From assembly GCA_002305585.1 (NCBI GenBank), contig DBPN01000056.1, positions 18,876-42,875 of the forward strand: a stretch of DNA of 24,000 bases, written 5' to 3'. This document shows positions 1,948 to 24,000 of this stretch, piece by piece; the first letter of the stretch is position 1; every line of letters begins with the position of its first letter. Made by a program: the position numbers and the translations under genes. Source of the stretch: Eggerthellales bacterium UBA1419. GTDB lineage: Bacteria > Actinomycetota > Coriobacteriia > Coriobacteriales > UBA8131. The notes beneath the pieces were generated by a model. It ran no database searches, was not told the DNA's origin, and worked only from the letters and a program-made list of their open reading frames with translations.

Positions 1948-4722
1948 ATGGCTGGATTCCTATCAAGACTGTTGAACGCTGGCGAAGGTAAGCAACTCAA
2001 GGCCTTTGAGGCAACTGTCAAAGAGATAAACGCGCTGGAACCACAGATACAGGCACTTTCAGATGAGCAGCTCAAGGCACAGACGCAAAGCCTGCGCTCG
2101 CGTTATGCTGCGGGTGAGACACTCGACAGTCTGTTACCCGAGGCCTTCGCAACCGTGCGTGAGGCTTCTGTGCGCACGTTGGGCATGCGACACTTTGATG
2201 TACAGCTCATCGGCGCGATGGCTCTGAACTCTGGGCAGATCGCCGAGATGAAAACGGGTGAGGGTAAGACGTTGGTGTCTACACTCGCCGGTTATCTTAA
2301 TGCCATTGGCGGTGAAGGTGTACATGTGGTTACCGTCAATGACTATCTGGCTAAGCGCGACAGCGAGTGGATGGGCAGGATCTACCGTTTTCTGGGCATG
2401 AGTGTTGGCTTGATCCAATCCGGGATGAAGACTGCAGATAAGCTGCCGGCTTATCAGGCCGATATCACCTATGGTACCAACTCGGAATTCGGCTTCGACT
2501 ATCTGCGCGACAACATGGTCACTCGTCTTGCGGATAGGGTGCAACGTGGCCATGCCTACGCCATTGTCGACGAGGTCGACTCGATCCTTATCGACGAAGC
2601 CCGTACGCCGTTGATCATCAGCGGCATTGGTACTCGAGCCGCCGAGACCTACAACAAATTCGCACGCGTGATACCAACACTACGCCGTGATGCAGACTTT
2701 GAGATGGATGAGGCCAAGCACACTATCTTCGCCACCGAGAGCGGTTTGAAGAAGATCGAGAACATGCTGGCTATCGATGATATCTACGATGATCCTTCTG
2801 GCCAGCTGGTCAATCATCTGCAACAGGCCCTGCGTGCCGAGTTCCTCTACAAACGCGATGTTGATTACGTGGTTGCGGATGGTGAAGTGAAGATAGTCGA
2901 CGAGTTCACCGGTCGCATGATGGAAGGCAGACGCTATTCAGAGGGTCTGCACCAAGCGCTGGAGGCTAAGGAGCGCGTGCTGATCCGCGAGGAGAATCAG
3001 ACGCTGGCCACCATCACGCTACAGAATTACTTCAGGCTCTACAAGAAACTCTCCGGCATGACCGGTACCGCCATGACTGAGGACGCGGAGTTTCGCCAAA
3101 TCTACAATCTGCCCGTCATGGCCATCCCATCCAATCGACCGGTCATCCGCGATGATCGCAATGACCTGGTCTACCGCACCATCGAAGCCAAATTCAACGC
3201 TGTGGCAGAAGACGTAGTCGAACGTCACTACAATGGCCAGCCATCGCTAGTTGGCACAGTGTCCATCGAGAGCTCTGAACGTTTGTCCCGCTTGCTGGAG
3301 AAGCGCGGGATCCCCCATGAGGTGCTCAACGCCAAGCATCATGAGCGCGAGGCGCACATAGTCGCCCAGGCTGGTCGTGCCGGAGCGGTGACCATCGCTA
3401 CTAACATGGCTGGCCGAGGCACCGACATCTTGCTGGGTGGCAATCCAGATTTCCTCACCGATGAGTTGCTGATCAACCAAGGTATCGATCCCGAGGAAGC
3501 GAGCGAGGAGCAGCGTGAGAAAGCAACGCTGAAAGCCAGGCAGATCACCTCGGAGGAGCACGCTGCGGTTGTGGCAGCCGGCGGATTGGCGGTCATCGGT
3601 ACCGAGCGGCATGAGGCCAGACGTATCGACAACCAGTTGCGTGGTCGTTCTGGTCGTCAGGGAGACCCGGGTTGCACGCAATTCTATCTCTCACTCGAAG
3701 ACGACCTGATGCGTCTGTTTGGTGGCAATCGCATGGAGCGTATTGCCAACATCATGCTCCGTACCGATATGCCAGACGATATGCCCATCGATTCGGGCAT
3801 GGTATCAAAAGCCATCGAGAGTGCTCAGCGTCAAGTCGAGTCGATGCACTTCGAATCCCGTAAACACGTGCTCGAGTACGACGATGTGATGAACCGCCAG
3901 CGCTCGGCGATCTATAATGAGCGCAACGCGATACTGGAGGGCAAGGACATCCATCAGCGTGCCTTGGATATCATGCAAGACACGGTGGAGAAGGCCGTGG
4001 GAGAGTATTGCAGCGGGGTCAGCGATGACTGGGATTGGGATGGCCTGAGAATCTGGCTAACCGAACTCACTGGTCTCGATGATTTCGAGCCGAGCGACAT
4101 TGAGCATGACGATGATGAGGATAAGCTCATCGATGGATTGCTTACCTACCTTGAGGGAGTGCTGAACGAGAAGGAGCAGTCCATAGGTAGCGAGCAGATG
4201 CATCGACTCGAATCGCAGGTTATGCTGCGTATCATCGATACGCGCTGGATGAACCATCTGCAGGAGATGGATTATCTTAAGGCTGGCATTGGGCTGCGTG
4301 CCTTTGGCCAGCGCGATCCACTCACAGAGTACAAGAATGAGGCACACGCGGCGTTTGGTGAGCTTCGTGATTCGATGTATGGCGACTACCTGCGCACCAT
4401 ACTGCGTATCCAGATCGTCAGAGCAGAAGAGCAACCGGCAGCGCAACTGTCATCGGCGCGGTATTCGGGACCGTCAGAGAGCGTGCCCTCACTGATAAAC
4501 GACGCGCGACAGGGGCCGGCGCAGCAAAACGCCCCGCAGCGAGCGGGTGCGGCGGCGATATCCGCTGGCGGCAGAGCTACTGGAGCGCAGCCGGCTCAGG
4601 GCAAGACGGCGACTATAGTCAGGGATAAAGAGGATCCATTCGCCAACGTTGGCCGTAACGATCCCTGTCCTTGTGGCAGTGGTAGGAAATTCAAGAAATG
4701 CCACGGCGCCAACATCAGTTGA
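1948..4722 (+). CDS. secA: Preprotein translocase ATPase SecA
   Basis: 924-aa ORF. It has a motor Walker A (MKTGEGKTLV), a DEVD box (VDEVDSILIDEARTPLIIS) and TNMAGRGTDI. The C-terminal zinc-binding tail is CPCGSGRKFKKCHG. A GAGAGGG SD-like sequence lies upstream of the ATG at 1948. Confidence 0.97.
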   Translation: MAGFLSRLLNAGEGKQLKAFEATVKEINALEPQIQALSDEQLKAQTQSLRSRYAAGETLDSLLPEAFATVREASVRTLGMRHFDVQLIGAMALNSGQIAEMKTGEGKTLVSTLAGYLNAIGGEGVHVVTVNDYLAKRDSEWMGRIYRFLGMSVGLIQSGMKTADKLPAYQADITYGTNSEFGFDYLRDNMVTRLADRVQRGHAYAIVDEVDSILIDEARTPLIISGIGTRAAETYNKFARVIPTLRRDADFEMDEAKHTIFATESGLKKIENMLAIDDIYDDPSGQLVNHLQQALRAEFLYKRDVDYVVADGEVKIVDEFTGRMMEGRRYSEGLHQALEAKERVLIREENQTLATITLQNYFRLYKKLSGMTGTAMTEDAEFRQIYNLPVMAIPSNRPVIRDDRNDLVYRTIEAKFNAVAEDVVERHYNGQPSLVGTVSIESSERLSRLLEKRGIPHEVLNAKHHEREAHIVAQAGRAGAVTIATNMAGRGTDILLGGNPDFLTDELLINQGIDPEEASEEQREKATLKARQITSEEHAAVVAAGGLAVIGTERHEARRIDNQLRGRSGRQGDPGCTQFYLSLEDDLMRLFGGNRMERIANIMLRTDMPDDMPIDSGMVSKAIESAQRQVESMHFESRKHVLEYDDVMNRQRSAIYNERNAILEGKDIHQRALDIMQDTVEKAVGEYCSGVSDDWDWDGLRIWLTELTGLDDFEPSDIEHDDDEDKLIDGLLTYLEGVLNEKEQSIGSEQMHRLESQVMLRIIDTRWMNHLQEMDYLKAGIGLRAFGQRDPLTEYKNEAHAAFGELRDSMYGDYLRTILRIQIVRAEEQPAAQLSSARYSGPSESVPSLINDARQGPAQQNAPQRAGAAAISAGGRATGAQPAQGKTATIVRDKEDPFANVGRNDPCPCGSGRKFKKCHGANIS

Positions 4723-4785
4723 CCCTCTCAAGATGTTCCGGCAACAATACTAGGGTATTCCAGCATCAATAGGTAAGGGAAAAAC

Positions 4786-5907
4786 ATGATAGAGGATCTG
4801 ACAGAACAGCTTAAGGCATTGGAGAATCGCATCAGTGATGCTGAGGGCTATCTTTATCTTGATCAGAAGCGCAGCAAGTTAAATGAGCTGGAGGCACTGT
4901 CGCTCCAGCCGGGATTCTGGGATGACCAACAGCGCGCTCAGCAGGTATCCAAGCAGGCATCCGACCTGCGCAGTGAACTCACCGAGTTCGACAGTGTGCG
5001 CACAGCCTTAGAGGACGCCCTGGTAGCCAACGAGCTGGCAGTACTCGATGGTGATGAGTCGTTGGCGGCCGAGGTTCCCTTGGCGTTGAAGGAGCTCAAC
5101 CAGCGCGTTGATGCCCTGGAACTCTCATCCTGGTTCTCTGGGGAATTCGATGGCGGAGATGCCATCATCAACATCAATCCTGGGCAGGGCGGTCTGGAGG
5201 CGCAGGACTGGACCGACATGCTGTTCAAGATGTATCTGGGTTATGCCCAGCGCAACCGCTGGAAGGTAGAGGTGCTTGACGCACCTCCGGGCGAGGTGAT
5301 CGGCTTGGATCACGCGACCTTCATCGTCAGCGGTCGTAACGCCTACGGCATGCTCTCAGCCGAGCAAGGCGTGCATCGTCTGGTGCGTATCTCGCCTACC
5401 GATGAGAAGAAGCGTCGTCAGACCACGTTTGCCGGGGTCGAGGTGTTGCCGGTGTTGCCAGATGATATCGAGGTGGAAATCAATCCGGCCGATCTGCGCA
5501 TCGATGTCTATCGGTCGAGCGGCCCGGGTGGCCAAAGCGTTAACACCACCGATTCCGCCGTACGGATCACACATGTTCCCACCAATACCGTGGTAACCTG
5601 CCAAAACGAGAAGTCCCAGCTGCAGAACAAGGAGGCGGCGATGAAGATCCTCAAGGCCCGTCTCTATGAGCTGGAACAAGCTAAACGCGAGGCGGAGCTT
5701 GAGGAATTGCGTGGGCCCAGACATGATGCATCGTGGGGTAATCAGATCAGGAACTACGTCCTCTATCCCTATCAGATGGTGAAAGATGTGCGCACTGGAG
5801 TTGAGACCGGCAATGTTGATGCCGTGCTTGATGGCGACTTGGATCAGTTTGTGATCGCCTTCCATCGCTGGCGCACCGAACAGGAAGGAGCAGCTGCCAA
5901 TGGCTGA
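4786..5907 (+). CDS. prfB: Peptide chain release factor 2, encoded in a single uninterrupted frame
   Basis: 373 aa. It has an RF2-type N-terminus (PGFWDDQQRAQ), a GGQ motif (SGPGGQSVNTTDSAVRITH) and HRLVRISPTDEKKRRQTTF aligning to the RF2 SPF loop. The tail YVLYPYQMVKDVRTGVETGNVDAVLDGDLDQF matches RF2. An AAGGGA SD precedes the ATG. Confidence 0.95.
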   Translation: MIEDLTEQLKALENRISDAEGYLYLDQKRSKLNELEALSLQPGFWDDQQRAQQVSKQASDLRSELTEFDSVRTALEDALVANELAVLDGDESLAAEVPLALKELNQRVDALELSSWFSGEFDGGDAIININPGQGGLEAQDWTDMLFKMYLGYAQRNRWKVEVLDAPPGEVIGLDHATFIVSGRNAYGMLSAEQGVHRLVRISPTDEKKRRQTTFAGVEVLPVLPDDIEVEINPADLRIDVYRSSGPGGQSVNTTDSAVRITHVPTNTVVTCQNEKSQLQNKEAAMKILKARLYELEQAKREAELEELRGPRHDASWGNQIRNYVLYPYQMVKDVRTGVETGNVDAVLDGDLDQFVIAFHRWRTEQEGAAANG

Positions 5908-8788: not shown

Positions 8789-9686
8789 TTTTCTCTACTT
8801 CATCAAGGAAGCCCTGGTCAATTCCAGGAAGAACTTCTCCACCACCCTTGGTGCTGTGTTGACGATTTTCCTCTCATTGCTGGTGATAGGTGTGTTCCTG
8901 GTTGCCAGCTTGATCATCGATAAGATCATCCAGTCAGTTGAGAGTCAGGTAACCATTACCATCTGGCTGTCCGACGATGCGGTTCAAAGCGATGTCGATT
9001 CACTGCAGAGCTATATACAGGGCCTGCCCGAGGTCAGCGAGGTCGATTTCACCTCGAAGGAAGAGGCTATCGAGAAATACAAGGAGATGTCTAGCGCCGA
9101 GATCGTCGAGCAACTGGGAGATAATCCACTGCCAGCCTCTTTGGATATCAGCCTTTCCGATCCCGAGCAAGTCGAGGCTGTTGTGGAACAAATCAAGTCC
9201 CAGCAGACGTTTGAACAGGTGATCGATCGTCCGGACAACCCCGATGAATCGCTACGTTATGGTCAGAAGATCATCAAACAGCTGTTTTCGACTGCGGAGA
9301 TCATCCGCTATGTGAGCATCGCACTGGTAGCCCTGCTGGCCTTCGTTGCGCTGATCTTCATCAACAATACAATCCGCCTGGCTATCCTGGCCAGACGCAA
9401 GGAAATAGCGATCATGCGTCTGGTGGGAGCCTCTAACGGTTTCATCCGTGGACCGTTTCTGATGGAGGGTGCTCTGCAGGCTATTATCGGTGCTGGTTTG
9501 GCCTCGATCTCGGTGGCGTCGATCAGCCACTACCTGCTGCCGCAGGTGACGCAGACCATCTCCTGGCTGCCCATCGACTTTACCGGCATGCAGCTCTGGC
9601 AGATCTACCTGATGCTGTTCGCAGTAGGTCTGGTCATAGGCCTCTTTGGCTCAGCTTGGGCGATGCGTCGCTATCTGAAAGCCTAG
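8772..9686 (+). CDS. ftsX: Cell-division permease-like protein FtsX
   Basis: [27 protein letters not shown] is a typical FtsX N-terminus. It is followed by TM1, an extracellular domain and three C-terminal TMs ([29 protein letters not shown]). The start (ATG 8772 or 8781) overlaps the ftsE end and is preceded by a GGGGG SD. The ORF-track start at 8583 lies deep inside ftsE. Confidence 0.9.
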
Positions 9687-15510: not shown

Positions 15511-15618
15511 CCTTCGCGGCGACTCACTGGCTGTAAAGGCCGGCATAACGTTGTGTCTTGAAGCGTGGCGTCTTACAGTGCGTCGGCGCAGACAGTTAAT
15601 AGAGCAGAGGATGATGAA

Positions 15619-16062
15619 ATGAACTACGCAGACTTGCAAAACGAGATAAAGATGGCCCTTAAGGCCCAAGACAAGACCAAGCTCTCAATACTCAGGCAAT
15701 GGCATGGCGAGATCAAGAACATCGAAGTGGACGAGCGTCGTGAGATCACCGACCAGGATGTCGATGCAATGTGCAGACGGATGATCAAGCAGACTCGAGA
15801 GACGCTGGAGGGGTCGATAAAAGCAGCCAACGATGTTCAACGCACCGAGATGCTCACCCGTCAAGTCGGGATTCTTGAAAACTACCTCCCCAAGCAGGTG
15901 GAGGGCGAGGAACTTGTTTCGCTCATCGACAAGGTGCTGGCAGAGACCGGTGCAACAAACAAGAAGGAAATGGGTGCAGTGATGGCGGCACTCAACGCCG
16001 CTACCGGTGGCAATCTGGACAAACGTGCTGCTGCGGTAGAACTCGGCAAGCGTCTGAGCTGA
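15619..16062 (+). CDS. GatB/YqeY domain-containing protein
   Basis: MNYADLQNEIKMALKAQDKTKLSILR... and ...KKEMGAVMAALNAATGGNLDKRAAAVELGKRL match the YqeY pattern. The ATG at 15619 has a GAGGA SD 7 nt upstream. The ORF-track start at 15565 lacks one. Confidence 0.85.
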   Translation: MNYADLQNEIKMALKAQDKTKLSILRQWHGEIKNIEVDERREITDQDVDAMCRRMIKQTRETLEGSIKAANDVQRTEMLTRQVGILENYLPKQVEGEELVSLIDKVLAETGATNKKEMGAVMAALNAATGGNLDKRAAAVELGKRLS

Positions 16063-16090
16063 GCTAGATTCCATAATTCCTTAAATATTG

Positions 16091-16119
16091 TTGTTCCAGA
16101 TTGAGGCTAATGCTATCAT
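16091..16119 (+). promoter_or_regulatory. Candidate sigma70-type promoter for the downstream ABC/ExbB-like operon
   Basis: TTGTTC (16091-16096), a 17-nt spacer, then TATCAT (16114-16119). It sits in the only AT-rich intergenic stretch of the window. The -35 overlaps the first TTCCAGATT repeat copy. This is a prediction by eye only. Confidence 0.3.
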
Positions 16120-16185
16120 TGGACGTGCCTGGAATAAAAATAAAAACAATCAAGAATAGTCCTATTCCAGATTAATAGCTGTCAA

Positions 16186-16214
16186 AGCCCTCCCCGAGGG
16201 TTATTGGTTTTTGT
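16186..16214 (+). terminator. Short GC hairpin followed by a T-rich tract. It may be the yqeY terminator or a leader attenuator.
   Basis: CCCTC (16188-16192) pairs with GAGGG (16196-16200) around a CCC loop. The stem can be extended by G-U and A-T pairs. The tail is ttattggtttttgt, with TTTTT at 16208-16212. The short stem and the displaced T-run make this weak. Confidence 0.3.
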
Positions 16215-16369
16215 AAAGGGGTGTTTGGCAAATAGCTGGTTCAAAGGACACATACGCCTCTCTTCGCGCTGAAGTTGAAACGGTTGGCCCTGTCGTCGAT
16301 GCCTGTGACAAGACTGAGTCTGCTGCCTTAGAGGTTTTCTCGACCGAGCATGTACGGAAAAGGATCATC

Positions 16370-17437
16370 TTGCTGTTCTTCGCCCTCATGGGTGTCGCAT
16401 TGATCTCATTTGGACTTGGGCGCTATTTCGTCGCACCTGCGGAGATCGTTCGGGCGACGGGCGAACAGCTGCACCAGCTGACTTTGGACCTTGGCGCGTT
16501 TCTGCAATCCATCGCCAATTGGTTCGATGTCACCTTCAATGGTGCCAAGTCCGTTACGGCTCAATCACCCAGCGTCATCGTCGATCTTAAAGCCAACGCC
16601 GCTTTGTTCAACATCCGCTTTCCACGAATCGTCGTCGTGGTTCTAGTAGGTATGGCGCTTTCGGTTGCCGGCGCTGCATATCAGGGTATGTTCAAGAATC
16701 CGCTCGTGTCGCCCGATCTTCTAGGCGCTTCAGCCGGGGCATCCTTTGGTGCCTGCCTGGCGTTACTGCTGAACTATGGCAACGAACTTATTCAGCTGTT
16801 CGCTTTTCTCGGTGGTATGACGGCTGTCTTCTTGGTGATGTGGCTGAACAAGATGGTGCGTTCAGATGCGATACTTGGTTTGATCCTAGGCGGCATCCTT
16901 GTAGGCACGTTGTTCTCCAGTGGTACTTCGATCATCAAACTGGTGGCGGATGCCGATGACAAATTACCCGCCATCACCTTCTGGCTGATGGGATCGTTCG
17001 CCTCGATCACTGTTCGTGACATGCTGACCATCCTGGTGCCGATGTTGGCGGGGTTCTCGATACTGCTCAGTCAGCGCTGGAGCTTGAATGTGCTCAGCTT
17101 TGGCGAAGACGAGGCAAAGAGTCTGGGAGTCAATACAACCCGCACCCGCACGTTGGTGATCATTGGCGCCACGCTATTGACGTCATGCTCGGTGGCCATC
17201 GCCGGTGTGATCGGCTGGATAGGACTGGTGGTGCCACACCTGACTCGAGCTATCGTTGGTCCAAACTACAAGATATTACTGCCAACTACGATGCTGGTAG
17301 GGTCGATATTCCTTCTGCTCGTGGATAACTTCGCCCGACTGCTTTATTCCGTCGAGATCCCCATCGGACTGTTGACCTCGATATTGGGCGTACCGTTCTT
17401 CGCTTTCATCTATCGCAAGAACATGAAGGGATGGTAG
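16370..17437 (+). CDS. FecCD/BtuC-family ABC permease (iron-chelate, haem or cobalamin type)
   Basis: Motifs include FPRIVVVVLVGMALSVAGAAYQGMFKNPLVSPDLLGASAGASFG, GWIGLVVPHLTRAIVGPNYKILLP and VEIPIGLLTSILGVPFFAFIY. The TTG start at 16370 has an AGGA SD (16361-16364) 5 nt upstream. No other in-frame start occurs upstream after the stop at 16214-16216. The ATG at 16388 is an alternative. Confidence 0.9.
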   Translation: MLFFALMGVALISFGLGRYFVAPAEIVRATGEQLHQLTLDLGAFLQSIANWFDVTFNGAKSVTAQSPSVIVDLKANAALFNIRFPRIVVVVLVGMALSVAGAAYQGMFKNPLVSPDLLGASAGASFGACLALLLNYGNELIQLFAFLGGMTAVFLVMWLNKMVRSDAILGLILGGILVGTLFSSGTSIIKLVADADDKLPAITFWLMGSFASITVRDMLTILVPMLAGFSILLSQRWSLNVLSFGEDEAKSLGVNTTRTRTLVIIGATLLTSCSVAIAGVIGWIGLVVPHLTRAIVGPNYKILLPTTMLVGSIFLLLVDNFARLLYSVEIPIGLLTSILGVPFFAFIYRKNMKGW

Positions 17438-17443
17438 CGGAAA

Positions 17444-18325
17444 ATGGTGAGCTTTAAGAAGCCAGGTACTCAAGAACAGCCTGTTGAGGCTGAGGCGCCA
17501 GGCTTGCTGCAGGTACAGGAACTGGTTGCTGGCTATGGCAGGAAAGAGATCGTTCATGGTATCAGCTTCGAGATGGATCGTGGTGAGTTCGTCTGCATAA
17601 TCGGTGCGAATGGCTGTGGCAAGACAACAGCGCTGCGCAGTATACTCGGCCTGCTTCCAGTTATGTCGGGCAAGATATTCATCAACGATGTGGATACGGC
17701 GTCGATGTCCATTCGCCGTAAAGCCAGGCACTTCGCTTATATCCCTCAGGTGCACGTGCCGCCATTCCCGTTCAAGGTTGCAGATGTTGTGTTGCTTGGG
17801 AGAACGCCGCATCTGGCCAGTAGCGTGTCTGACGTCTCCAAGCGCGACAAGGTCATTGCCTATCAGGCCATGCAGCAATTATCGATTGAACATCTTGCAG
17901 AGCGGGAGTACACCGAACTTTCCGGTGGCCAACAACAGCTTGTCCTGATTGCCCGTGCTCTGGCGCAGGAGCCGGATATCCTGGTGATGGACGAGCCCAC
18001 GGCCTCATTGGATTTTGGTAATCAGCAACTGGTGCTGACCCGCCTGCACAAACTGTCTCGTGATGGTGTCTCTGTCTTGATGGTAACTCATGATCCCGAC
18101 CATGCGTTGTTCTGTGCCGATCGGGTTATCGTCATGGAGCAGGGTGTCATCATATGTACGGGTAACCCAGTCGATGTCATTACTTCAGAGATCATGCATC
18201 GGATATATGGTACTCACGTGTACGTCGCTGATGTCATGGTGGGCGATTGTCGAGCGGTAAGGACCTGCGTGCCGCTGATGGCGGCCGATACAGACGATCG
18301 GGAAACTGGTGGGAGGTACCTGTGA
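17444..18325 (+). CDS. ABC transporter ATP-binding protein (FecE/BtuD/HmuV type)
   Basis: Walker A is GANGCGKTT, signature LSGGQQQLVLIARAL, Walker B ILVMDEPTASLD and H-loop MVTHDP. It starts 6 nt after the permease stop. Confidence 0.93.
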   Translation: MVSFKKPGTQEQPVEAEAPGLLQVQELVAGYGRKEIVHGISFEMDRGEFVCIIGANGCGKTTALRSILGLLPVMSGKIFINDVDTASMSIRRKARHFAYIPQVHVPPFPFKVADVVLLGRTPHLASSVSDVSKRDKVIAYQAMQQLSIEHLAEREYTELSGGQQQLVLIARALAQEPDILVMDEPTASLDFGNQQLVLTRLHKLSRDGVSVLMVTHDPDHALFCADRVIVMEQGVIICTGNPVDVITSEIMHRIYGTHVYVADVMVGDCRAVRTCVPLMAADTDDRETGGRYL

Positions 18326-19530
18326 CCGAGAAACGAGCACATCTAGAAGTGCAATCAGGACACCCGGATATTGAGCAATCATGTGGGTCCAATCCAGCAT
18401 CGGGTTTCTCGCGTCGTGATTTCTCCAAGCTGATCGCCACCGGGTTCGTGGTCACGTTGGCAGCTCCAATGCTCAGCGGCTGTAAGGAATATGCCGACGC
18501 CGTGATACTTGGCAAGCGCACAGTGACAGACCATGCCGGGCGTGAGGTGGAGATCCCCACACCTGAGGGTATCAAAAGCGTCTTCTTCACATCGTCGCTC
18601 GCCCAGGTTTATATCACTTCGCTGTGCCCCGATCTCCTCGGCGGCACCGCCAGCAAGTTCGACGCCGGGCAGTTGCGCTTCATGCCGGCCGGAGTTGATA
18701 AGCTTCCCTATCTGGGTACCATCCATAACAATGGCGAGATCGACCGCGAGTCCCTGCTCACCGAGGATATCGACATCATGTTCTCGATCAGTGGTATCGA
18801 GCTCACGCAGCAAAACGTCTCGGAGGCCATAGGGTTACAGGATCAGACACATATACCTTGCCTGTTGGTGGATGGTTCCTTCGACAAGATTCCAGAGGCG
18901 TTCCGTTTCCTGGGCGACATCCTTGGACGCGAGGAACGTGCCGAGGAGCTGGCAAGTTTCTGCGAGCGCAGCTATACCAGTGTCCGCGATGTCGTGCAGA
19001 CCATACCCCAGGAAGAGCGAGTCAGACTGTATTACGCCGAGGGACCGGAAGGCCTGCAGACAGAGCCGGAGACATCACAGCACATGTTGGGCTTCCTCGA
19101 AGCTGGGGCGATATGTGTCGCTGATTGTGAGGAAACCTACGGCGGCGGTATGACCGATGTCTCGTTGGAACAGGTACTGACCTGGGATCCTGAGGTGATC
19201 ATCGCCTGGGATACCGAGCAACGCGGTGGCGCAGCCGAGGATATCCTCACCAATCCTGACTGGGCTCAGATCCAAGCAGTCAAAGAGGACCGAGTGTATG
19301 CGATGCCCAATGAACCGTGGGCCTGGTGCGATCGTCCTCCTGGCGTGAATCGGATCCTGGGTATCCACTGGGTGGCCAATCTACTTTACCCCGACATCTA
19401 TGACGTGGATATCAAAGAGATCATAAAAGAGTTCTTCAAGGTGATGTATCAGGTTGATGTCGATGATCAGACGGTAGAGGGGCTGCTGGGGAACTCCTAT
19501 CCACCACCACCACGTAAGGATAAGCAATAA
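18322..19530 (+). CDS. Class III (Peripla_BP_2-type) substrate-binding lipoprotein with a twin-arginine signal
   Basis: The GTG at 18322 overlaps the ATPase stop (GTGA), with a GGAGG SD 5 nt upstream. The signal is SRRDFSKLIATGFVVTLAAPMLSGC, combining a Tat motif and a lipobox Cys54. The body shows chelate-SBP features: VFFTSSLAQVYITSL, DIDIMFSISG, PEVIIAWD and VYAMPNEPWAWCDRPPGVNRILGIHW. Confidence 0.85.
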   Translation: MTEKRAHLEVQSGHPDIEQSCGSNPASGFSRRDFSKLIATGFVVTLAAPMLSGCKEYADAVILGKRTVTDHAGREVEIPTPEGIKSVFFTSSLAQVYITSLCPDLLGGTASKFDAGQLRFMPAGVDKLPYLGTIHNNGEIDRESLLTEDIDIMFSISGIELTQQNVSEAIGLQDQTHIPCLLVDGSFDKIPEAFRFLGDILGREERAEELASFCERSYTSVRDVVQTIPQEERVRLYYAEGPEGLQTEPETSQHMLGFLEAGAICVADCEETYGGGMTDVSLEQVLTWDPEVIIAWDTEQRGGAAEDILTNPDWAQIQAVKEDRVYAMPNEPWAWCDRPPGVNRILGIHWVANLLYPDIYDVDIKEIIKEFFKVMYQVDVDDQTVEGLLGNSYPPPPRKDKQ

Positions 19531-19531
19531 G

Positions 19532-21685
19532 ATGCAGACAAGAGGTTCATATCTGTCGCGCTGGTTGCGGACCATCCGGGATACGCTGGTGCTGTTCGTG
19601 GCCGTGCTGCTGATCATGACTCAGCTGCCATTGACCGCTCTGGCCGAAAGCGCGCTCGCAGACCCCGATCCCCAGCCGGTGGATGCCCAGGTGCCCAGCA
19701 TCTCCGTATCGCCTCTGAGCGCCTCCTACACCCAAGGCGACTCTCCGGCTGCATTGAATGTAGCTGCCAGTGTCAGCGATGGCGGAACGCTCTCCTATCA
19801 GTGGTATGGCAACAGCGTTGACAGCACAGCGGGCGGTTGGGCAGCAGGAAGCGGCACCTCATTGCTGCCTGCGACAGACACTGTGGGAACAACCTACTAT
19901 TATGTCGTCATCACCAACACCAACAGTCAGGCCACCGGCGCTCAGACTGCCAGCGCAACTACTGGCTTCGCTGCAATCACCGTCATCGCGCCTGCGGATG
20001 ATCCTTCTCCGATAGACACAGACCATGTGACTCAGCTGATATTGAAATACGAAGACCCCGACACTCCGAATAAGTACTATCCCGTTGGCGAAGATGGCGA
20101 TGCCAGCCATAAGTGGTTGCAGATCGATCAGAAGGGCGAGAAGGTTCAGCTTGTGGTCTATTACAAGACCGAGCAACATCCCTATAGCGAATTCTCTGCG
20201 GCCAATGGTTCTGAGAACCTCGGCGAGATACCTCTGGTTTGGCAATCCAGCGATAACAACATCGCAACAGTTGGTCCCGACGGTGTGGTCACTCCACGTG
20301 GCAACGGCACGGTAACCATCACGGCTACTGTCGGTCTTTCCGATCCCTTGAAATACGAGGGCACAGCTCCCTATCGAAGCGTTGTCATCATCTTTGATGG
20401 CCAGGATGGCGAATATGTGAGCGAGGTGACCATCATCGACGAAGAAGGCGTCGATATGGGTCGCAAAGCCGGGACTACTAAGCTGTTTGGCAAACTGGAT
20501 ACGCACTTCAAGTTCTATGCCCAGATCACCTGGACTGATGCTGACGGGAACACCCGTGTCGAGGATACTCGCAACGATAAACCCAGCTCGTCAGTCAAGT
20601 GGTCGATAGGCGGGTCGACGATACCGGCGTCGATCAATGAGGATACCGGTACTCTCACCCTCACCCAGTATTCTGGCAATGCCTATGTCATCTGCTCGGT
20701 TACCGGTGGCTTGTTTGGCGAAACCGTACGGGATTATGCTCAGTTCCAGCTGGATACCGGTCAATATGAATATAACCCCAGCGACTCCTTGACACTTAAG
20801 GTGGTCTATCAGGAGTATCCGGACAAGGTGGTGCAGGAGCATACATACAGTTACTCAGAATTGCTTGGCAGCCTGAGTTCTTATACCTACAACTATACGA
20901 TCATGCGCGGGTTTGACTATGGCTGCATCAGAGCCCAGGGCTTCCTTTTCAAGGATGTGATGGATCTGGAGGGTATCAAACTGGAAGAAGTGTATCAGTT
21001 CCGTTTTGGCACTATGGACGGTTATGATAACCCCGTCACCTATCAGCTATTGTACGGATCTGGGCCCCGTTATTTCTTCCCCAATCTTGATATCAGCAGC
21101 AAATCCGGCGCTACGGTTGTGCCGCCGATGCTGGCATATAGCAGTGCTACCGTCTGGAACCAGTCAGAAGTCGACCCCTCACTCGCTCTCGATGACGGGA
21201 CTCGGTTCAGATTGGTGTTTGGCCCTCTGTGGTCAGGAGAGACCAACTCCGCCTATCAGATCTACTACATCCATACCATCACCGTCGTCATGGCGGGCGC
21301 TCCACCAGTCACTCCAGGCGACGGCGACGATGATGGCGGCGGCGGTGGTACTGGAGATGAGAACAATGGCAGCGATCAAAGTGGCGATGGTCTAGCTGGC
21401 GTAAAAGGTGTCAATGGCTCAGCGGGAACAGAGCTGGTCGATCCCGGCGGAGCAGACAATGACGCAACCGATGAGAGCGGCGAAGGTGCCGCGGGTGCAC
21501 TTAGCGCAACTGATGGTGAAGGTCGTGGCTGGCGGGTCTATGAAATGATGAGCAAGGCACAGTCTCAGCTCGCGCCATTGGAGTACGACAATCCGCTATC
21601 GCCCTTTGCGGCACCGGTTGGTTTTGCAAGCGTGGCGGCAGGAGTCGGTTTCACGTACCTGGGATTTAAAAGGAGGCTGTTTTAA
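19532..21685 (+). CDS. 717-aa cell-surface protein with a signal peptide, Ig-like/Big_2-like domains, a C-proximal beta-rich module, a Gly/Asp linker and a C-terminal TM tail anchor
   Basis: The signal peptide is LVLFVAVLLIMTQLPLTALA/ES. One Ig-like module reads LSYQWYGNS...GTTYYYVVITNT. A Big_2-like module reads LVWQSSDNNIATVGPDGVVTPRGNGTVTITATV, and a second one reads VKWSIGGS...TGTLTLTQYSGNAYVICSV. The acidic Gly-rich linker is GDGDDDGGGGGTGDENNGSDQSGDG... The terminal TM is FAAPVGFASVAAGVGFTYLGF followed by KRRLF. There is no LPXTG motif. Confidence 0.85.
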   Translation: MQTRGSYLSRWLRTIRDTLVLFVAVLLIMTQLPLTALAESALADPDPQPVDAQVPSISVSPLSASYTQGDSPAALNVAASVSDGGTLSYQWYGNSVDSTAGGWAAGSGTSLLPATDTVGTTYYYVVITNTNSQATGAQTASATTGFAAITVIAPADDPSPIDTDHVTQLILKYEDPDTPNKYYPVGEDGDASHKWLQIDQKGEKVQLVVYYKTEQHPYSEFSAANGSENLGEIPLVWQSSDNNIATVGPDGVVTPRGNGTVTITATVGLSDPLKYEGTAPYRSVVIIFDGQDGEYVSEVTIIDEEGVDMGRKAGTTKLFGKLDTHFKFYAQITWTDADGNTRVEDTRNDKPSSSVKWSIGGSTIPASINEDTGTLTLTQYSGNAYVICSVTGGLFGETVRDYAQFQLDTGQYEYNPSDSLTLKVVYQEYPDKVVQEHTYSYSELLGSLSSYTYNYTIMRGFDYGCIRAQGFLFKDVMDLEGIKLEEVYQFRFGTMDGYDNPVTYQLLYGSGPRYFFPNLDISSKSGATVVPPMLAYSSATVWNQSEVDPSLALDDGTRFRLVFGPLWSGETNSAYQIYYIHTITVVMAGAPPVTPGDGDDDGGGGGTGDENNGSDQSGDGLAGVKGVNGSAGTELVDPGGADNDATDESGEGAAGALSATDGEGRGWRVYEMMSKAQSQLAPLEYDNPLSPFAAPVGFASVAAGVGFTYLGFKRRLF

Positions 21686-22476
21686 TGGGAGTTGAAGGTT
21701 TGACAACGTACGTGGCGGCAATATTGCACGGTGTGGCGCAGAATCTGATGGTACCGACGATGATAGTCCTGGTTCTCCTCATCGTCTTCGCGTTGTTCTG
21801 TGTTGGTTCGATCATCACCGAGATATTCACCGAGCGCAAGCATTTTAAAGCCAATGTACCGCGGATCATCAACGAGATCCATGACGTCGACTATAAGGAT
21901 GTAGAAAAGGTCGTGTCCCGTTCTGCCCTGCTCAATCCCCAGAAGCAGGCTCTGCTGATGATTGTACGCAACATGGGTCTTTCTGAAGATGACCTGTTCG
22001 CTTTAGCAAAAACCCAGATAGCCAAGGTCGATGATCGCTACAAACGCATTCTTTCCCACACGGAACAGGTGACCAAGATCGCACCGATGATGGGATTGAT
22101 GTGCACGTTGATCCCGCTTGGTCCCGGTATCGTAGCGATGGGACAAGGCGAAGTCACCCAACTTTCGATGTCGTTGTTGATAGCTTTCGACGGTACGGTC
22201 GCCGGTCTGGTTGCCGCTGTGGTCTCACTGTTGGTCACAGCCGTACGCAAGCGTTGGTACGCACATTACATGATCGTGCTGGAGGCTCTGATGACCAGCC
22301 TGCTGGATAAAGCCTCAGCCGCTCGTATCGCAGGAATCAAACTGCCGCATAACTACTATGAGACTGAAATGCATGCAACTGAATCCAAGGTAAGTAAAGG
22401 TATCCTGCCCGAGATCGAGACAGAAGAGTGCATCAAACGCGAGAGTGTTATAGAGCCACAACCTGCGAAGGGGTGA
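21685..22476 (+). CDS. MotA/TolQ/ExbB-family proton-channel protein
   Basis: 263 aa with three predicted TMs. The family signature is APMMGLMCTLIPLGPG (compare ExbB/TolQ xPxxGLxGTVxG). The last TM, LLIAFDGTVAGLVAAVVSLLV, retains the conserved Thr. The ATG shares its A with the upstream TAA (TAATG). Confidence 0.85.
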   Translation: MGVEGLTTYVAAILHGVAQNLMVPTMIVLVLLIVFALFCVGSIITEIFTERKHFKANVPRIINEIHDVDYKDVEKVVSRSALLNPQKQALLMIVRNMGLSEDDLFALAKTQIAKVDDRYKRILSHTEQVTKIAPMMGLMCTLIPLGPGIVAMGQGEVTQLSMSLLIAFDGTVAGLVAAVVSLLVTAVRKRWYAHYMIVLEALMTSLLDKASAARIAGIKLPHNYYETEMHATESKVSKGILPEIETEECIKRESVIEPQPAKG

Positions 22477-22943
22477 TGATCGTGGCACGTGATTTCAATT
22501 CGGGGATCTTCCTCAATGCCAGCCAAGATACCGCCGAGGATGTCGATCCGCGTATCGGCCTGGTCAATCTGGCCGATGTCATGTTGGTATTCGCCTGTGG
22601 ATTGATGCTGGCGTTAGTTAGCTACTGGAATCTCGATATGTCCAACCTGCAGGAGCTGGTGCAAAACGAACAAGTTGCCGAGGTCAGTGATATCGAGGAC
22701 CTGGAGGGGCAGCTCAATGGCATCGGTAGCGGTTACCAGGAACTGGGGATGGTGTATAAGGATCCAACAACCGGCAAGCTCTATATGCTCTCAGAGGATC
22801 TTGCCGGTGATGAGTCGGGTTCTGACTCGAGCTCATCAGGTGCCGCTTTAAGCTCAACGAACGATGTGTCGAGCTCGTCAGGTGCAGGCTCGGGCTCATC
22901 AGGTACGGTTTCGGACGTATCAGACACTGCAAGAGGGGAGTGA
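22476..22943 (+). CDS. Small single-pass membrane protein, ExbD/TolR-like (DUF2149-like), with a Ser/Gly/Asp-rich tail
   Basis: The ATG at 22476 shares its A with the upstream TGA (TGATG), and a GAAGGGG SD lies upstream. The TM region GLVNLADVMLVFACGLMLALV carries an Asp in a DVML context like ExbD/TolR (xxDVMLVLL). The C-terminus is GDESGSDSSSSGAALSSTNDVSSSSGAGSGSSGTVSDVSD. Confidence 0.75.
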   Translation: MIVARDFNSGIFLNASQDTAEDVDPRIGLVNLADVMLVFACGLMLALVSYWNLDMSNLQELVQNEQVAEVSDIEDLEGQLNGIGSGYQELGMVYKDPTTGKLYMLSEDLAGDESGSDSSSSGAALSSTNDVSSSSGAGSGSSGTVSDVSDTARGE

Positions 22944-22946
22944 GCC

Positions 22947-24000
22947 ATGCGTCGACCATCATCAGCTCTTAAGCTCGTTGTCTCGCTGCTTGTCGTGCTG
23001 TTCTGTTGTGGCTCTGTGACGGCTTTCGCAGCCGACAGCCAGGATGTTCACAGTGGAGATACCCTCACTTCTTCAGTACAGAGAGCGGGCGTTACCGTAC
23101 TTACAGACCCGATTTCTGGTAAAGACGTTGCTTTTTCCACTCCGCTGCAAACCCTTGCTGCCGGGGATCCCGATATCAGCTGGTATGACGATAGTCTAGA
23201 CTCCTTCACCCTTACCAAGGCAGAGCAGTTCCTGGGCTTATCGGTATTGGTTAACCAACAGCATAAAGATTTCACCGGTAAGACCGTGACGTTGGCCGCA
23301 ACTGTCAGCGGGGCCCCGGTCACACCGATTGGAACAGCGGAGCATCCGTTCAATGGAACATTCGATGGCGGCTATGATCGCAATAACTCCGTCAGTTACA
23401 TGTTATCGAATCTGACCGTCAACGCCACCAGTAAGTCCTATGTTGGAATCTTTGGCTACACGGGACCTGATTCTTCGATCAGGAACCTCTGGGTATACGG
23501 AGGAACGCTGAGCATCGATGAACAGGCGGCCGCAGGAGCGCAGATCAGCGATGTTGGCAGCATCGCCGGATATATGGGCGGTGACATCGATAACTGCGTG
23601 TCTTCGATGAACATCTCGATAACGAGCGAGCGCGAGGCAACTACCGATATCGTCGGCAATGTCTGCCGCGTTGGTGGCTTGGTTGGCTATCTGGCTGGTG
23701 ACATGCAGGGGTGCGCACGGGATATCAGCGACATCGCGATCGCCAGTGACTCGGATATACTGGAGAACATGCGCTACCTCGCAGGTGAGATCGGTGGGTT
23801 GGTAGGTGCACAAGGTGATACAAACGATATCGATATCGTGCCAACGATTAATGACTCCTTGAACAAGGGTAAGATCATCATGACCCTGACCGGTGCAGGC
23901 GGCAAGGATCGCTTTGGCGAACAGCTCTTCTCGGTCTCAGCCTGTGTGGGCGGAATAGTGGGGGCTACCACCGGAAGCGTCTATCGTTGTACCAATGAAG
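22947..24000 (+). CDS. Secreted surface protein with GLUG-type (GGLVG) beta-helix repeats, 3'-truncated by the window edge
   Basis: This ORF is not in the supplied ORF track. I translated it by hand from ATG 22947 (GAGGGGAG SD upstream), and it is open to base 24000. The signal peptide is LKLVVSLLVVLFCCGSVTAFA/AD. It contains HPFNGTFDGG...LSNLTV...YVGIFGY and repeated VGSIAGY, VGGLVGY, IGGLVGA and VGGIVGA motifs. Confidence 0.8.
   Translation, partial: MRRPSSALKLVVSLLVVLFCCGSVTAFAADSQDVHSGDTLTSSVQRAGVTVLTDPISGKDVAFSTPLQTLAAGDPDISWYDDSLDSFTLTKAEQFLGLSVLVNQQHKDFTGKTVTLAATVSGAPVTPIGTAEHPFNGTFDGGYDRNNSVSYMLSNLTVNATSKSYVGIFGYTGPDSSIRNLWVYGGTLSIDEQAAAGAQISDVGSIAGYMGGDIDNCVSSMNISITSEREATTDIVGNVCRVGGLVGYLAGDMQGCARDISDIAIASDSDILENMRYLAGEIGGLVGAQGDTNDIDIVPTINDSLNKGKIIMTLTGAGGKDRFGEQLFSVSACVGGIVGATTGSVYRCTNE

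Follow-up and report, generated by a model that had tools for sequence, protein, structure and literature searches.

What would a bacterium without an outer membrane do with a proton motor of the kind that, in Gram-negative bacteria, pulls nutrients through the outer membrane? The question is raised by a 24,000-nucleotide stretch of DNA from Eggerthellales bacterium UBA1419 (the whole stretch is called the window here), in which seven genes run along the + strand from 16370 to 24000 with intergenic spacings of -4 to +6 nt. A preliminary description had named these genes and placed their junctions; re-reading of the sequence bears out every junction, and Pfam profile matches agree with the gene identities, falling along the operon in the order FecCD, ABC_tran, Peripla_BP_2, an Ig-like surface protein, MotA_ExbB, DUF2149 and a GLUG protein:

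16370 to 17437, + strand: FecCD/BtuC-type permease of a type II ABC importer, 355 aa from TTG (FecCD 4.5e-81); its stop, TAG 17435-17437, is separated from the next start by a 6-nt gap.
17444 to 18325, + strand: ABC ATPase, 293 aa, from ATG 17444 (ABC_tran 3.7e-30); its TGA 18323-18325 overlaps the next start (GTGA).
18322 to 19530, + strand: class III substrate-binding protein (SBP), from GTG 18322 (Peripla_BP_2 6.8e-20), ending in TAA 19528-19530.
19532 to 21685, + strand: type I membrane protein of 717 aa and putative motor client, from ATG 19532 (Big_2 1e-4, weak); its TAA 21683-21685 shares an A with the next ATG.
21685 to 22476, + strand: ExbB-like stator subunit of a divergent MotA/TolQ/ExbB clade, 263 aa, from ATG 21685 (MotA_ExbB 3e-8); its TGA 22474-22476 shares an A with the next ATG.
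22476 to 22943, + strand: DUF2149 protein, ExbD/TolR-like, 155 aa with one transmembrane helix, from ATG 22476 (DUF2149 5e-10), ending in TGA 22941-22943.
22947 to 24000, + strand: secreted GLUG-motif protein, from ATG 22947 (Glug 3e-8), represented by its N-terminal 351 of 1361 aa and running past the window end.

The permease TTG is the first canonical start past an in-frame stop at 16214, and this start is uncertain because the in-frame residues upstream (..VRKRII) resemble the usual basic N-flank of TM1. Terminator-like sites within the operon show no excess (5 found, 5.4 expected by chance), and the evidence that goes beyond chance is synteny in 80 related loci. By its sequence affinities the host is a Coriobacteriales-type monoderm, in line with the monoderm context proposed earlier: the nearest relatives belong to Coriobacteriales, Eggerthellaceae and Eubacteriales Family XIII, and CW_binding_2 repeats occur in the adjoining surface proteins of the window, LPXTG-type signals in those of relatives. 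The reported absence of TonB and beta-barrel receptor genes also holds, both in the window locus and in all 80 related loci.

The two motor proteins retain residues that are hallmarks of proton-conducting stators. The ExbB-like protein matches Pfam MotA_ExbB at 33.9 bits (cut-off 22.9), and the invariant T141 and T171 fall on pore residues T148 and T181 when its profile is aligned by hhalign with E. coli ExbB (E 1.8e-4), the E. coli sequences in these motor comparisons being approximate. Its partner scores 40 bits against DUF2149 (cut-off 27.1); the transmembrane Asp34, within NLADVMLVF, is at least 95% conserved (n=79 sequences) and mirrors the IDVMLVL of ExbD, and outside the membrane follow a hairpin motif, G-x-V-Y-x-D-P-x-T-G-K-L-Y, and a Ser/Gly-rich tail. 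Because the pore threonines and transmembrane Asp are conserved, the pair looks like a functional proton stator. A 2025 survey terms the incomplete Ton systems of monoderm Actinobacteria 'likely non-functional' (PMC12204202), and the pair could accordingly be read as a vestigial Ton remnant, its neighbour's C-terminal module being a mere sorting or anchoring signal, for instance for a sortase-like enzyme. Decay of the motor genes is argued against by the 40-80% identity among relatives and the several paralogous loci per genome; invariant catalytic residues and strict adjacency to DUF2149 and client also speak against a remnant, which we consider very improbable.

The 717-aa protein comprises a signal peptide, Ig-like domains, a conserved cofactor-fold domain, a disordered linker and a C-terminal anchor. 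It had been called tail-anchored; the C-terminal helix stands, while the N-terminal signal peptide makes the protein type I and not a strict tail-anchored one. Three of its segments are:

20774 to 21316, + strand: conserved ectodomain (residues 415-595, pLDDT 94.4) whose predicted fold is PruR-like, of the degenerate SUOX (Moco/pterin-binding) type.
21317 to 21496, + strand: Gly/Asp/Ser-rich disordered linker, residues 596-655 (pLDDT < 50).
21497 to 21682, + strand: conserved C-terminal module, G-W-R-V-Y-E-M-M-S ... D-N-P-L-S-P-F, a Gly-rich transmembrane helix and a KRRLF tail.

The low-confidence stretch spans residues 596-673, its remainder past 655 falling in the module segment. A PDB fold search with the ectodomain model gave significant matches to PruR pterin binders only (7rkb, 7kom and 7kou), all at probability 1.0 and with target-normalised TM scores of 0.58-0.63. 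The match is moderate (TM 0.5-0.63, 10-14% identity) and Pfam Oxidored_molyb gives no hit; cofactor binding by this predicted PruR/SUOX-like fold is putative. Both proteins are extracytoplasmic, the window domain differing in its low identity, in its lack of a Pfam match and in being one part of a large protein anchored to the membrane, and PruR partners a c-di-GMP enzyme and not a transporter. As PruR serves as a sensor of pterins, motor and client might by analogy form a surface sensor in which ligand binding regulates genes or the importer, as PruR does with DcpA. However, genes for regulators, kinases or c-di-GMP enzymes do not recur in the 80 loci, and the client's cytoplasmic tail has only about 5 residues, so that we give a sensory role the faintest probability of the readings considered.

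The module (consensus W-x-V-Y-E-M-M ... NPxxP, one transmembrane helix, basic tail) is found in 47 of the 80 related loci, every time at the extreme C-terminus, and the ectodomain in 56, as well as in L001, a Logan contig with copies of the ExbB-like gene and neighbours identical to the window's. In a reverse check, the module fragment P0243 adjoins MotA_ExbB and DUF2149 genes. Looser versions end four further proteins beside the same motor: a secreted CobN-like protein in L088 (..RAYEIYS..TM..KK), one with a CobN domain in L085, one of 2917 aa in L089 and a DUF6591 protein in L086. Such distant clients are out of reach of the module HMM, and the likeness of their C-termini was judged by eye. 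The three-part layout is also that of a wall-sorting signal (motif, hydrophobic stretch, basic tail), and NPxxP resembles the sortase B motif NPQTN, as the remnant reading would have it. Against that, no sortase gene recurs in the 80 loci, and adjoining GLUG proteins of the same loci use LPXTG.

Gene neighbourhoods indicate which of these associations is constant. DUF2149 directly follows the ExbB-like gene in 78 of the 80 loci, the two exceptions being contig ends. In 42 loci the flanks reach 5 kb or more on each side; 30 of these have ABC genes beside the pair and 26 the complete permease-ATPase-SBP set, in at least six gene orders across the related loci, some with the motor genes between those for SBP and permease. 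The linkage of motor and importer proposed earlier thus persists through rearrangements. No ABC genes were detected in the other 12 of these loci, so not every motor need be tied to uptake. In 13 loci the pair is present and none of the window's ABC, 717-aa-type or GLUG proteins was detected; in 8 of these an adjoining large secreted protein bears the C-terminal module, and others have a similar C-terminal anchor. On this comparative evidence, the genes of the motor pair are locked to one for a secreted protein whose C-terminus consists of a conserved juxtamembrane strand, a single transmembrane helix and a basic tail; usually they are linked as well with genes for a type II ABC importer and for a GLUG protein held at the wall. 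The constant partner of the motor is the C-terminally anchored protein and not the importer, and contact between motor and client is a prediction from their co-occurrence.

The full 1361-aa GLUG protein, on L001, carries three CW_binding_2 repeats, which lie beyond the window and anchor it to the wall. Across loci, GLUG neighbours end in LPXTG, CWB2 or Lys-rich tails and the client keeps its single module. Wall-bound neighbours carry two or three copies of the client ectodomain, including two in a downstream CWB2 protein.

Upstream of the operon lie two further features:

16084 to 16173, no strand assigned: intergenic repeats AATATTGTTGTTCCAGATT / AATAGTCCTATTCCAGATT and inverted CTGGAATA/TATTCCAG, a candidate operator.
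16186 to 16212, + strand: terminator-like hairpin and T-run.

The hairpin probably terminates the upstream gene (15565-16062) and leaves a leader of about 155 nt before the operon. The repeats are possibly an operator and match no DtxR, Fur, MntR or Zur consensus; no riboswitch or known metalloregulator box was found upstream of the operon or in 41 related loci. L088 and L075 each have a cobalamin riboswitch immediately 5' of the motor operon, and L089 has a Moco riboswitch there, the ExbB-like proteins of these three loci being 39-40% identical to the window's. Such predicted riboswitch control in relatives shows that motor operons of this kind are regulated, a further point against a remnant.

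These observations also bear on the possibility that the motor serves surface proteins, moving, assembling, tensioning or shedding large adhesin- or S-layer-like proteins in the manner of GldLM, AglRQS or Tol-Pal, with the ABC importer as an often present neighbour of separate function. The 13 loci without ABC genes, most with a giant secreted protein beside the pair, would fit, as would the adhesin-like domains (Ig-like, LRR, Flg_new, GLUG, CWB2) of clients and GLUG partners. Proton stators of the 5:2 type with clients besides TonB or the flagellum are known in GldLM, AglRQS and ZorAB, but these are other subfamilies (gliding, type 9 secretion, phage defence) whose partner genes are absent from the window locus, and genes for motility or secretion do not recur across the 80 loci. 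Since motor genes sit inside ABC operons flanked by SBP and permease genes, cofactor riboswitches govern three of the relatives' motor operons, and the conserved client domains are cofactor-type folds (SUOX-like or CobN-like), this explanation seems unlikely.

The importer itself is of the family shared by MolBC-A (HI1470-72) and BtuCD-F, with FecCD permease, ABC ATPase and class III SBP. Its earlier label of chelate importer holds at family level only. Every NCBIfam equivalog model scores far under its cut-off. The SBP is a lipoprotein, as had been proposed, on account of its Tat motif SRRDF (SRRDFSKL) and lipobox LSGC. Its best PDB match is 4pag (8e-55), for which we know of no ligand, and not MolA, which matches over almost full length (6.6e-24). 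Among solved proteins with a ligand known to us, MolA, a molybdate/tungstate binder, is nearest to the SBP profile; BtuF gives no match, and the window operon has no cobalamin riboswitch. The layering of wall receptors, near-membrane protein, lipoprotein SBP, and FecCD permease with ATPase recalls the Gram-positive haem relays Isd and HtaA-HmuTUV. Those relays are passive affinity cascades built on NEAT or HtaA domains, without a proton motor; the window has a motor, and a Pfam search found no NEAT domain in its proteins.

A further parallel exists in Bacteroidota, where HmuU is annotated as MotA/TolQ/ExbB and HmuV as DUF2149, their function being uncharacterised, and where the adjoining HmuS is secreted, C-terminally anchored (PMC13227078) and acts on a metal cofactor (PMC10434189, PMC11681262, PMC12583661, PMC13227078). 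The HmuY-R-S-T-U-V system thus shares the motor pair beside a secreted, C-anchored protein. The window differs in lacking CobN-like HmuS, HmuT (a putative permease, possibly DUF2162-like), HmuY and HmuR, and in having a SUOX-like client domain, a full ABC importer, wall-anchored GLUG/CWB2 proteins and a monoderm host. The clostridial loci L085 and L088 are intermediate, combining secreted CobN-like clients with SBP and ABC genes. The link of ExbB-like/DUF2149 pairs to metal or corrinoid uptake, raised in the preliminary description, holds in Firmicutes (L075, L085, L088) and, by literature, in Bacteroidota (PMC10434189, PMC11681262). HmuTUV is presumed to move haem or iron across the inner membrane in Porphyromonas, as the P. 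gingivalis literature assumes for haem (PMC12094164, PMC13227078), and the pair could likewise be part of a membrane translocation route for ligand or metal and no force generator. A gene for a polytopic DUF2162 protein precedes the pair in L088. The window locus, however, has a complete ABC importer and no DUF2162/HmuT gene, the conserved residues match proton-conducting stators, and we know of no MotA/ExbB-family member that translocates a substrate. Translocation is therefore judged quite improbable.

The TonB-ExbB-ExbD system of diderms offers the remaining comparison. In both, an ExbB-family subunit carries the two pore threonines, its single-pass partner has a transmembrane Asp within DVMLV, and another single-pass protein extends outward by a long flexible linker; the tie to nutrient uptake and a class III SBP/FecCD importer is shared as well. 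The window differs in having no TonB, TonB-dependent receptor or outer membrane; its partner matches DUF2149 and not Pfam ExbD; its putative transducer is C-anchored, with a signal peptide and a ligand-type domain of its own; and its ExbB-like profile is too divergent to match solved ExbB or TolQ chains, a sequence search of the PDB matching no ExbB, TolQ or MotA chain.

We give an even chance to the reading that the window locus encodes, in a monoderm, a system for nutrient capture that is Ton-like but has no TonB. Driven by the proton-motive force, the ExbB-like/DUF2149 complex would pull on the 717-aa protein at its C-terminal anchor, or twist it there, and this protein would take TonB's role with inverted topology. 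Force would pass along a flexible linker of roughly 75 residues and reach the ligand-binding ectodomain, with its PruR/SUOX-like fold, and the wall-bound proteins that partner it, the GLUG protein and the downstream CWB2 protein, and a tightly bound ligand would be freed or passed inward to the lipoprotein SBP, from which the ATP-driven importer would take it up. The preliminary description stands in its observations and in part of its interpretation: force on a wall-spanning receptor, its first option, is favoured over adhesin movement because the constant partner is a C-anchored protein. The ligand is probably a metal cofactor or metal complex, the motor operons of relatives being associated with cobalamin or Moco. 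For the window subfamily, the MolA-like SBP and predicted SUOX-like fold lean weakly towards a Mo/W or pterin-type ligand, with an iron chelate or haem as the alternative. A Gram-positive, gut-type bacterium whose Gram-negative-type proton motor is tied to an importer and to surface proteins anchored in membrane and wall would suggest that nutrient capture without an outer membrane can be powered in a manner not yet described.

The operon at 16370-24000 comprises seven consecutive + strand ORFs on inspection of the window, and all six junctions lie where the preliminary description had placed them (in order, the genes lie 6 nt apart, overlap by GTGA, lie 1 nt apart, twice share a single base of stop and ATG, and lie 3 nt apart). 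The protein families that it had named were recovered by Pfam profile searches as FecCD (4.5e-81), ABC_tran (3.7e-30), Peripla_BP_2 (6.8e-20), MotA_ExbB (3e-8), DUF2149 (5e-10) and Glug; the Big_2 match in the 717-aa protein is weak. The features needed here are as follows.

16186-16212: terminator-like hairpin, followed by a leader of about 155 nt before the operon
18322-19530, + strand: substrate-binding protein (SBP)
19532-21685, + strand: 717-aa protein, the proposed motor partner (client)
21685-22476, + strand: ExbB-like protein
22476-22943, + strand: DUF2149 protein, with the ExbB-like protein the presumed proton stator
22947-24000, + strand: GLUG protein, running off the window

No operon-internal terminators above chance were found, and the upstream part of the window is housekeeping (SecA, RF-2, transketolase, FtsEX, S41 peptidase, RNase R and SmpB). 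In L001, a Logan contig with an identical ExbB-like gene and neighbours, the last operon gene is complete, encoding 1361 aa with three terminal CW_binding_2 repeats, and is followed by a gene for a 719-aa CW_binding_2 protein.

Several observations concern the flanks. The leader region holds a 19-nt direct repeat in two copies (16084-16173), each ending TTCCAGATT, and the inverted repeats CTGGAATA/TATTCCAG; these may form an operator, and comparison with a set of metalloregulator consensus sequences gave no match. In the permease ORF, neither ATG nor GTG nor TTG occurs 5' of TTG 16370 (16214-16372), the in-frame residues before that codon (..HVRKRII) resemble the usual basic flank of TM1, and permease homologues have N-termini 30-40 aa longer than the window's, so the gene may have a non-canonical start or a shortened N-terminus. 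An ORF entering from the left edge (1-1686) encodes a product with a BTAD transcriptional-activator domain. The motor locus is preceded by secA and prfB both in the window (1948-5907, about 10 kb off) and in Caldanaerobacter (L085 1-2653, directly adjacent), which is probably ordinary conserved synteny.

The motor pair retains the residues expected of a proton channel. The ExbB-like protein matches MotA/TolQ/ExbB (PF01618) at 33.9 bits (cut-off 22.9, E 3e-8), and hhalign of the family alignment with the E. coli ExbB sequence (E 1.8e-4) places T141 on T148 and T171 on T181, both threonines of the ExbB-like protein being invariant in 18 sequences. Established structural work has shown that T148 and T181 of E. 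coli ExbB line the channel around ExbD Asp25. The DUF2149 protein (PF09919; 40 bits, cut-off 27.1) has a single N-terminal TM with NLADVMLVFACGLM, in which Asp34 of NLADVMLVF is at least 95% conserved (79 sequences) and is the counterpart of ExbD IDVMLVL, and its external part retains a G-x-V-Y-x-D-P-x-T-G-K-L-Y motif. In Pfam DUF2149 was its sole match, with none to the ExbD profile, and BLASTP against the E. coli ExbD sequence gave no meaningful alignment. The ExbB-like profile found 1199 clusters at E<=1e-3 and 855 at E<=1e-10 among 1.84 billion cluster representatives, and against PDB sequences it recovered no chain of ExbB, TolQ or MotA at E <1; these few clusters and the lack of a solved match mark the clade as small and distinct within the superfamily. 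Ton genes of monoderms have been regarded as 'likely non-functional' remnants (PMC12204202), and ExbB/ExbD-type homologues in monoderms as untested (PMC9389320). Judged from sequence, the remnant view is disfavoured by the pore threonines, Asp34, the external DUF2149 motif and the strong conservation. The locus would belong with the Ton-like 5:2 stator systems, as a variant with a proposed mechanism.

More than 1000 ExbB-like relatives exist, the named ones coming from Coriobacteriales, Gordonibacter and Clostridiales Family XIII. When a single genome of each species was scanned, 448 were returned, and the best 80 of these were taken as the related loci; nearly all of the 80 are from Coriobacteriia (Eggerthellaceae, Gordonibacter, Slackia, Denitrobacterium and Senegalimassilia) or Eubacteriales Family XIII, and several genomes carry more than one motor locus. 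The hosts did not prove to be diderm: relatives lie in Coriobacteriia and Clostridia, and neighbouring proteins carry CW_binding_2 repeats and LPXTG anchors, which fit a monoderm envelope. Five loci (L014, L029, L032, L033 and L045) sit on contigs with 'cleanbin' assignments to Phocaeicola dorei, Bacteroidaceae, Akkermansia muciniphila, Methanomethylophilaceae and Agathobacter rectalis; they are 48-60% identical to the window's locus, mostly in the same gene order, and are probably mis-binned Coriobacteriia.

The proposed association of motor and importer was borne out when the seven window proteins were compared with six-frame ORFs of the 80 loci. DUF2149 directly follows the ExbB-like gene in 78 of the 80, the two exceptions being contig ends. 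Forty-two loci have 5 kb or more on each side; ABC components were present in 30 of them, and the full set of permease, ATPase and SBP in 26. Gene orders include perm-atp-sbp-client-exbB-duf-glug (12 loci), sbp-exbB-duf-perm-atp (6), exbB-duf-perm-atp-sbp-client-glug and others. As the linkage outlasts rearrangement, with the SBP and permease genes in some cases flanking the motor genes, a shared function is well evidenced. Clustering of ORFs across the 80 loci gave the ExbB-like protein in 80, DUF2149 in 76, the SBP in 59, the 717-aa type in 54, GLUG in 52 and the permease in 44; the ATPase was also recurrent, its cluster being fused with spurious ORFs. No TonB, receptor, CobN or regulator family recurred, and a gene for TonB or a TonB-dependent beta-barrel receptor, already missed in the operon, is absent from the seven window proteins and from the recurrent families of the 80 loci. 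The linkage is conserved well beyond chance, and its parts come from known families. A P-loop NTPase_1-like protein of about 240 aa lies 3' of the operons in seven loci (L001 7964-8674; L011 16919-17653; five others).

[quoted passage not shown] It ends in a module of strand, TM helix and basic tail, GWRVYEMMSKAQSQLAPLEYDNPLSPFAAPVGFASVAAGVGFTYLGFKRRLF. In the first search, 13 loci carried the pair without detected window-type ABC, 717-aa-type or GLUG proteins. Most of these ABC-less loci have a secreted protein of 1000-1700 aa adjoining the pair, and eight such proteins terminate in ..PGARWT..(about 20 aa)..NPFAP, a TM helix and FRRQ, the same module as in the client; several other ABC-less neighbours end in a looser strand, helix and basic tail. 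The module HMM matched in 47 of the 80 related loci, at the extreme C-terminus every time. Against a 5.8-billion-protein database the profile found only 12 short fragments, the word prefilter being limiting for short queries, and one fragment adjoins MotA_ExbB and DUF2149.

A vestigial system in which the module is a sorting signal could be envisaged. The module carries NP(L/F)xP(F/Y), not the LPXTG or NPQTN of sortase substrates, and no sortase families recur in the 80 loci. Moreover, GLUG neighbours have at least three anchor types (LPXTG-type in Gordonibacter and Eggerthella loci, CWB2 repeats and Lys-rich tails), and it is this variety which argues that the module goes with the motor rather than serving as a general signal for wall sorting. 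Another rival explanation is that the motor moves or assembles surface proteins.

In the AlphaFold2 model of the client (pLDDT 70.6; 32-sequence alignment), confident Ig-like domains accompany an alpha/beta domain (residues 415-595), a disordered linker rich in Gly, Asp and Ser (596-673) and a terminal helix (690-716). Compared with the PDB, the full-length model gave only generic Ig-tandem matches to S-layer proteins and cadherins, a difficulty resolved by modelling the conserved domain separately. Residues 415-595, which contain most of the invariant positions, then reached pLDDT 94.4 and pTM 0.89, and the sole significant fold matches were to PruR (7rkb/7kom/7kou; E 2e-4 to 5e-3, probability 1.0, target-normalised TM 0.58-0.63; next match E 0.35). 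[quoted passage not shown] Pfam gave no Oxidored_molyb match in this domain even at E 10. An HMM of the SUOX-like domain matched L001 as well as 56 of the 80 related loci, including clients of loci without ABC genes, and wall-bound neighbours carry two or three copies. Just past the 3' end of the window, L001 (5462-7672) encodes a 719-736-aa CW_binding_2 protein with two PruR/SUOX-like copies and a weak NCBIfam match to 'GEGP motif-containing diheme protein' (4e-5). At the other end of the client, residues 41-160 (window 19650-20010) form an extra N-terminal Ig-like domain with a YQWY motif that is absent from most orthologues; its 40-55% identity to domains of unrelated SLH/S-layer and fibronectin-type proteins (Paenibacillus and others) suggests domain shuffling.

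With a FecCD permease, an ABC ATPase and a Peripla_BP_2 SBP all present, the importer is of the type II class (BtuCD-F/FecBCDE). Both a twin-arginine motif (SRRDFSKL) and a lipobox (LSGC) are present in the SBP. Its profile best matched 4pag in the PDB (8e-55), for which no ligand is known, and matched MolA at 6.6e-24 over nearly its full length; MolA, a molybdate/tungstate binder, is the nearest solved protein of known ligand. The profile reached IsdE at only 7e-6 and FhuD at only 8e-5, and BtuF gave no match in the PDB search. NCBIfam transporter equivalogs all fell under cut-off, and no NCBIfam model fits the client or DUF2149. Rfam searches found no relevant riboswitch in the window (gathering threshold throughout; E up to 10 over 15900-16600), none was found in 41 related Coriobacteriia-type loci, and for DtxR/IdeR, Fur, MntR and Zur boxes 5' of 16 orthologous operons the best matches, with 6-12 mismatches, amount to noise. 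A Moco core pattern matched in L089, a distant clostridial relative, and nowhere else. A corrinoid ligand for the window was rejected on the weak negative of no riboswitch and no BtuF-like match. The MolA match, the SUOX-like fold and the Moco riboswitch of L089 lean weakly towards a Mo/W or pterin-type ligand; the chain is loose, since the L089 client has no detectable SUOX-like domain, and an iron chelate or haem is also plausible.

Distant members of the family occur in Clostridia, with ExbB-like proteins 39-40% identical to the window's in L075 and L089. In Calderihabitans (L088), DUF2162, ExbB-like and DUF2149 genes are followed by a CobN-like protein of 1345 aa that has a signal peptide and ends in '..RAYEIYS..TM..KK'. 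In Caldanaerobacter (L085), a secreted 369-aa CobN-domain protein ending '..VVYEIS..TM' precedes the ExbB-like gene and a 70-aa DUF2149-like gene, after which come ChlI/D, FecCD, an ABC ATPase and BtuR. L086 (Lachnospiraceae) has an ExbB-like gene, a C-anchored DUF6591 protein and a DUF2149-like gene, and L089 has ExbB-like, DUF2149 and a 2917-aa C-anchored GLUG/Flg_new protein ('KVFELV..ENPLL..TM..KKRF'). The module and SUOX-domain HMMs did not match the clients of L075, L085, L086, L088 and L089. Directly 5' of the motor operon, Rfam placed a cobalamin riboswitch in L088 (8942-9135) and in L075 of Emergencia timonensis (9418-9609), and a Moco riboswitch in L089 (9768-9907).

Two of these regions hold further elements. 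In L075 (5237-9300), a second cobalamin riboswitch precedes three secreted proteins, one with DUF4430 and another with fn3 and a weak toroid match of the squalene-hopene-cyclase type. The set resembles transcobalamin-type corrinoid binders, and its operon lies immediately 5' of the motor operon that the other riboswitch controls. In L089 (6725-7947), a second Moco riboswitch, on the minus strand, precedes an SBP_bac_11 (ModA/TupA-like) gene and adjoins the Moco-riboswitch-controlled motor operon and three Peripla_BP_2 genes, an arrangement suggestive of an island for Mo/W acquisition.

Bacteroidota have the same Pfam pair, under the annotation HmuU/HmuV, in the iron- and haem-induced hmuYRSTUV operon, where HmuS is a secreted CobN-like dechelatase with a C-terminal TM helix and HmuT, HmuU and HmuV are uncharacterised (PMC10434189, PMC11681262, PMC12583661, PMC12094164, PMC13227078). 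The likeness of the window to Hmu S-T-U-V through this pair rests on annotations quoted in PMC11681262. A CobN-like HmuS is absent from the window and the 80 loci, whereas L085 and L088 have CobN-like neighbours. Nor does the window have a polytopic HmuT-like gene, DUF2162 being the family to which we assume HmuT to belong; in L088 such a gene stands before the pair. What Coriobacteriia, Clostridia and Bacteroidota have in common is a stator and a large extracytoplasmic C-anchored metal-cofactor protein, often with a type II ABC importer. A translocation role for the pair, as assumed for HmuTUV, is an alternative to force transduction. Literature searches found DUF2149 only in Bacteroidota annotation tables, nothing for Eggerthella lenta with TolQ or for PF09919, and, in the library searched, no description of such a system in monoderms.

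Comparative genomics supports the main inference of the preliminary description, a motor with a non-TonB client in a monoderm, and client and coupling module can now be named. On the model that we consider most economical, proton flow through the ExbB-like/DUF2149 stator would exert force on the C-terminal module of the client, which would act as a TonB analogue of inverted topology, and the linker of about 75 residues would allow the ectodomain to reach into the wall. The force could alter the affinity of the SUOX-like domain, or of homologous domains on wall-bound partners, and the lipoprotein SBP would receive the ligand and pass it on to the ABC importer. More speculatively, the conserved strand of the module could beta-augment with a DUF2149 hairpin. 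Motor and client could instead constitute a sensing system.

A wider reading, which we put forward tentatively and consider rather doubtful as yet, is that HmuU/HmuV-type stators provide widespread TonB-independent force transduction, with a C-terminal module (basic-x-V/I-Y/F-E/Q-M/I strand, TM helix and basic tail) plugging exchangeable extracytoplasmic cofactor traps into the motor. The traps would be SUOX-like in the window, CobN-like in Clostridia, HmuS in Bacteroidota and giant repeat proteins elsewhere, and the SUOX-like trap and MolA-like SBP would make the window a Mo/W or pterin/Moco scavenger of gut Coriobacteriia. If so, PMF outside the cell would stand in for the ATPases that drive cofactor handling inside.

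Motors of the ExbB/ExbD type are textbook energisers of the outer membrane. If the proposed mechanism is true, such a system in Coriobacteriia and Clostridia, conserved, present in several copies and regulated by riboswitches, would extend proton-driven force across the Gram-positive wall, and HmuT/U/V of the abundant gut Bacteroidota haem system would gain a testable role in powering HmuS, a periplasmic ATP-less dechelatase. The coupling module, now defined, is a mutable target. Eggerthella, Gordonibacter, Slackia and their relatives are gut bacteria which metabolise drugs and polyphenols and have a heavy dependence on Mo/W and other cofactors, and the route by which such hosts are supplied with cofactors is of practical interest.
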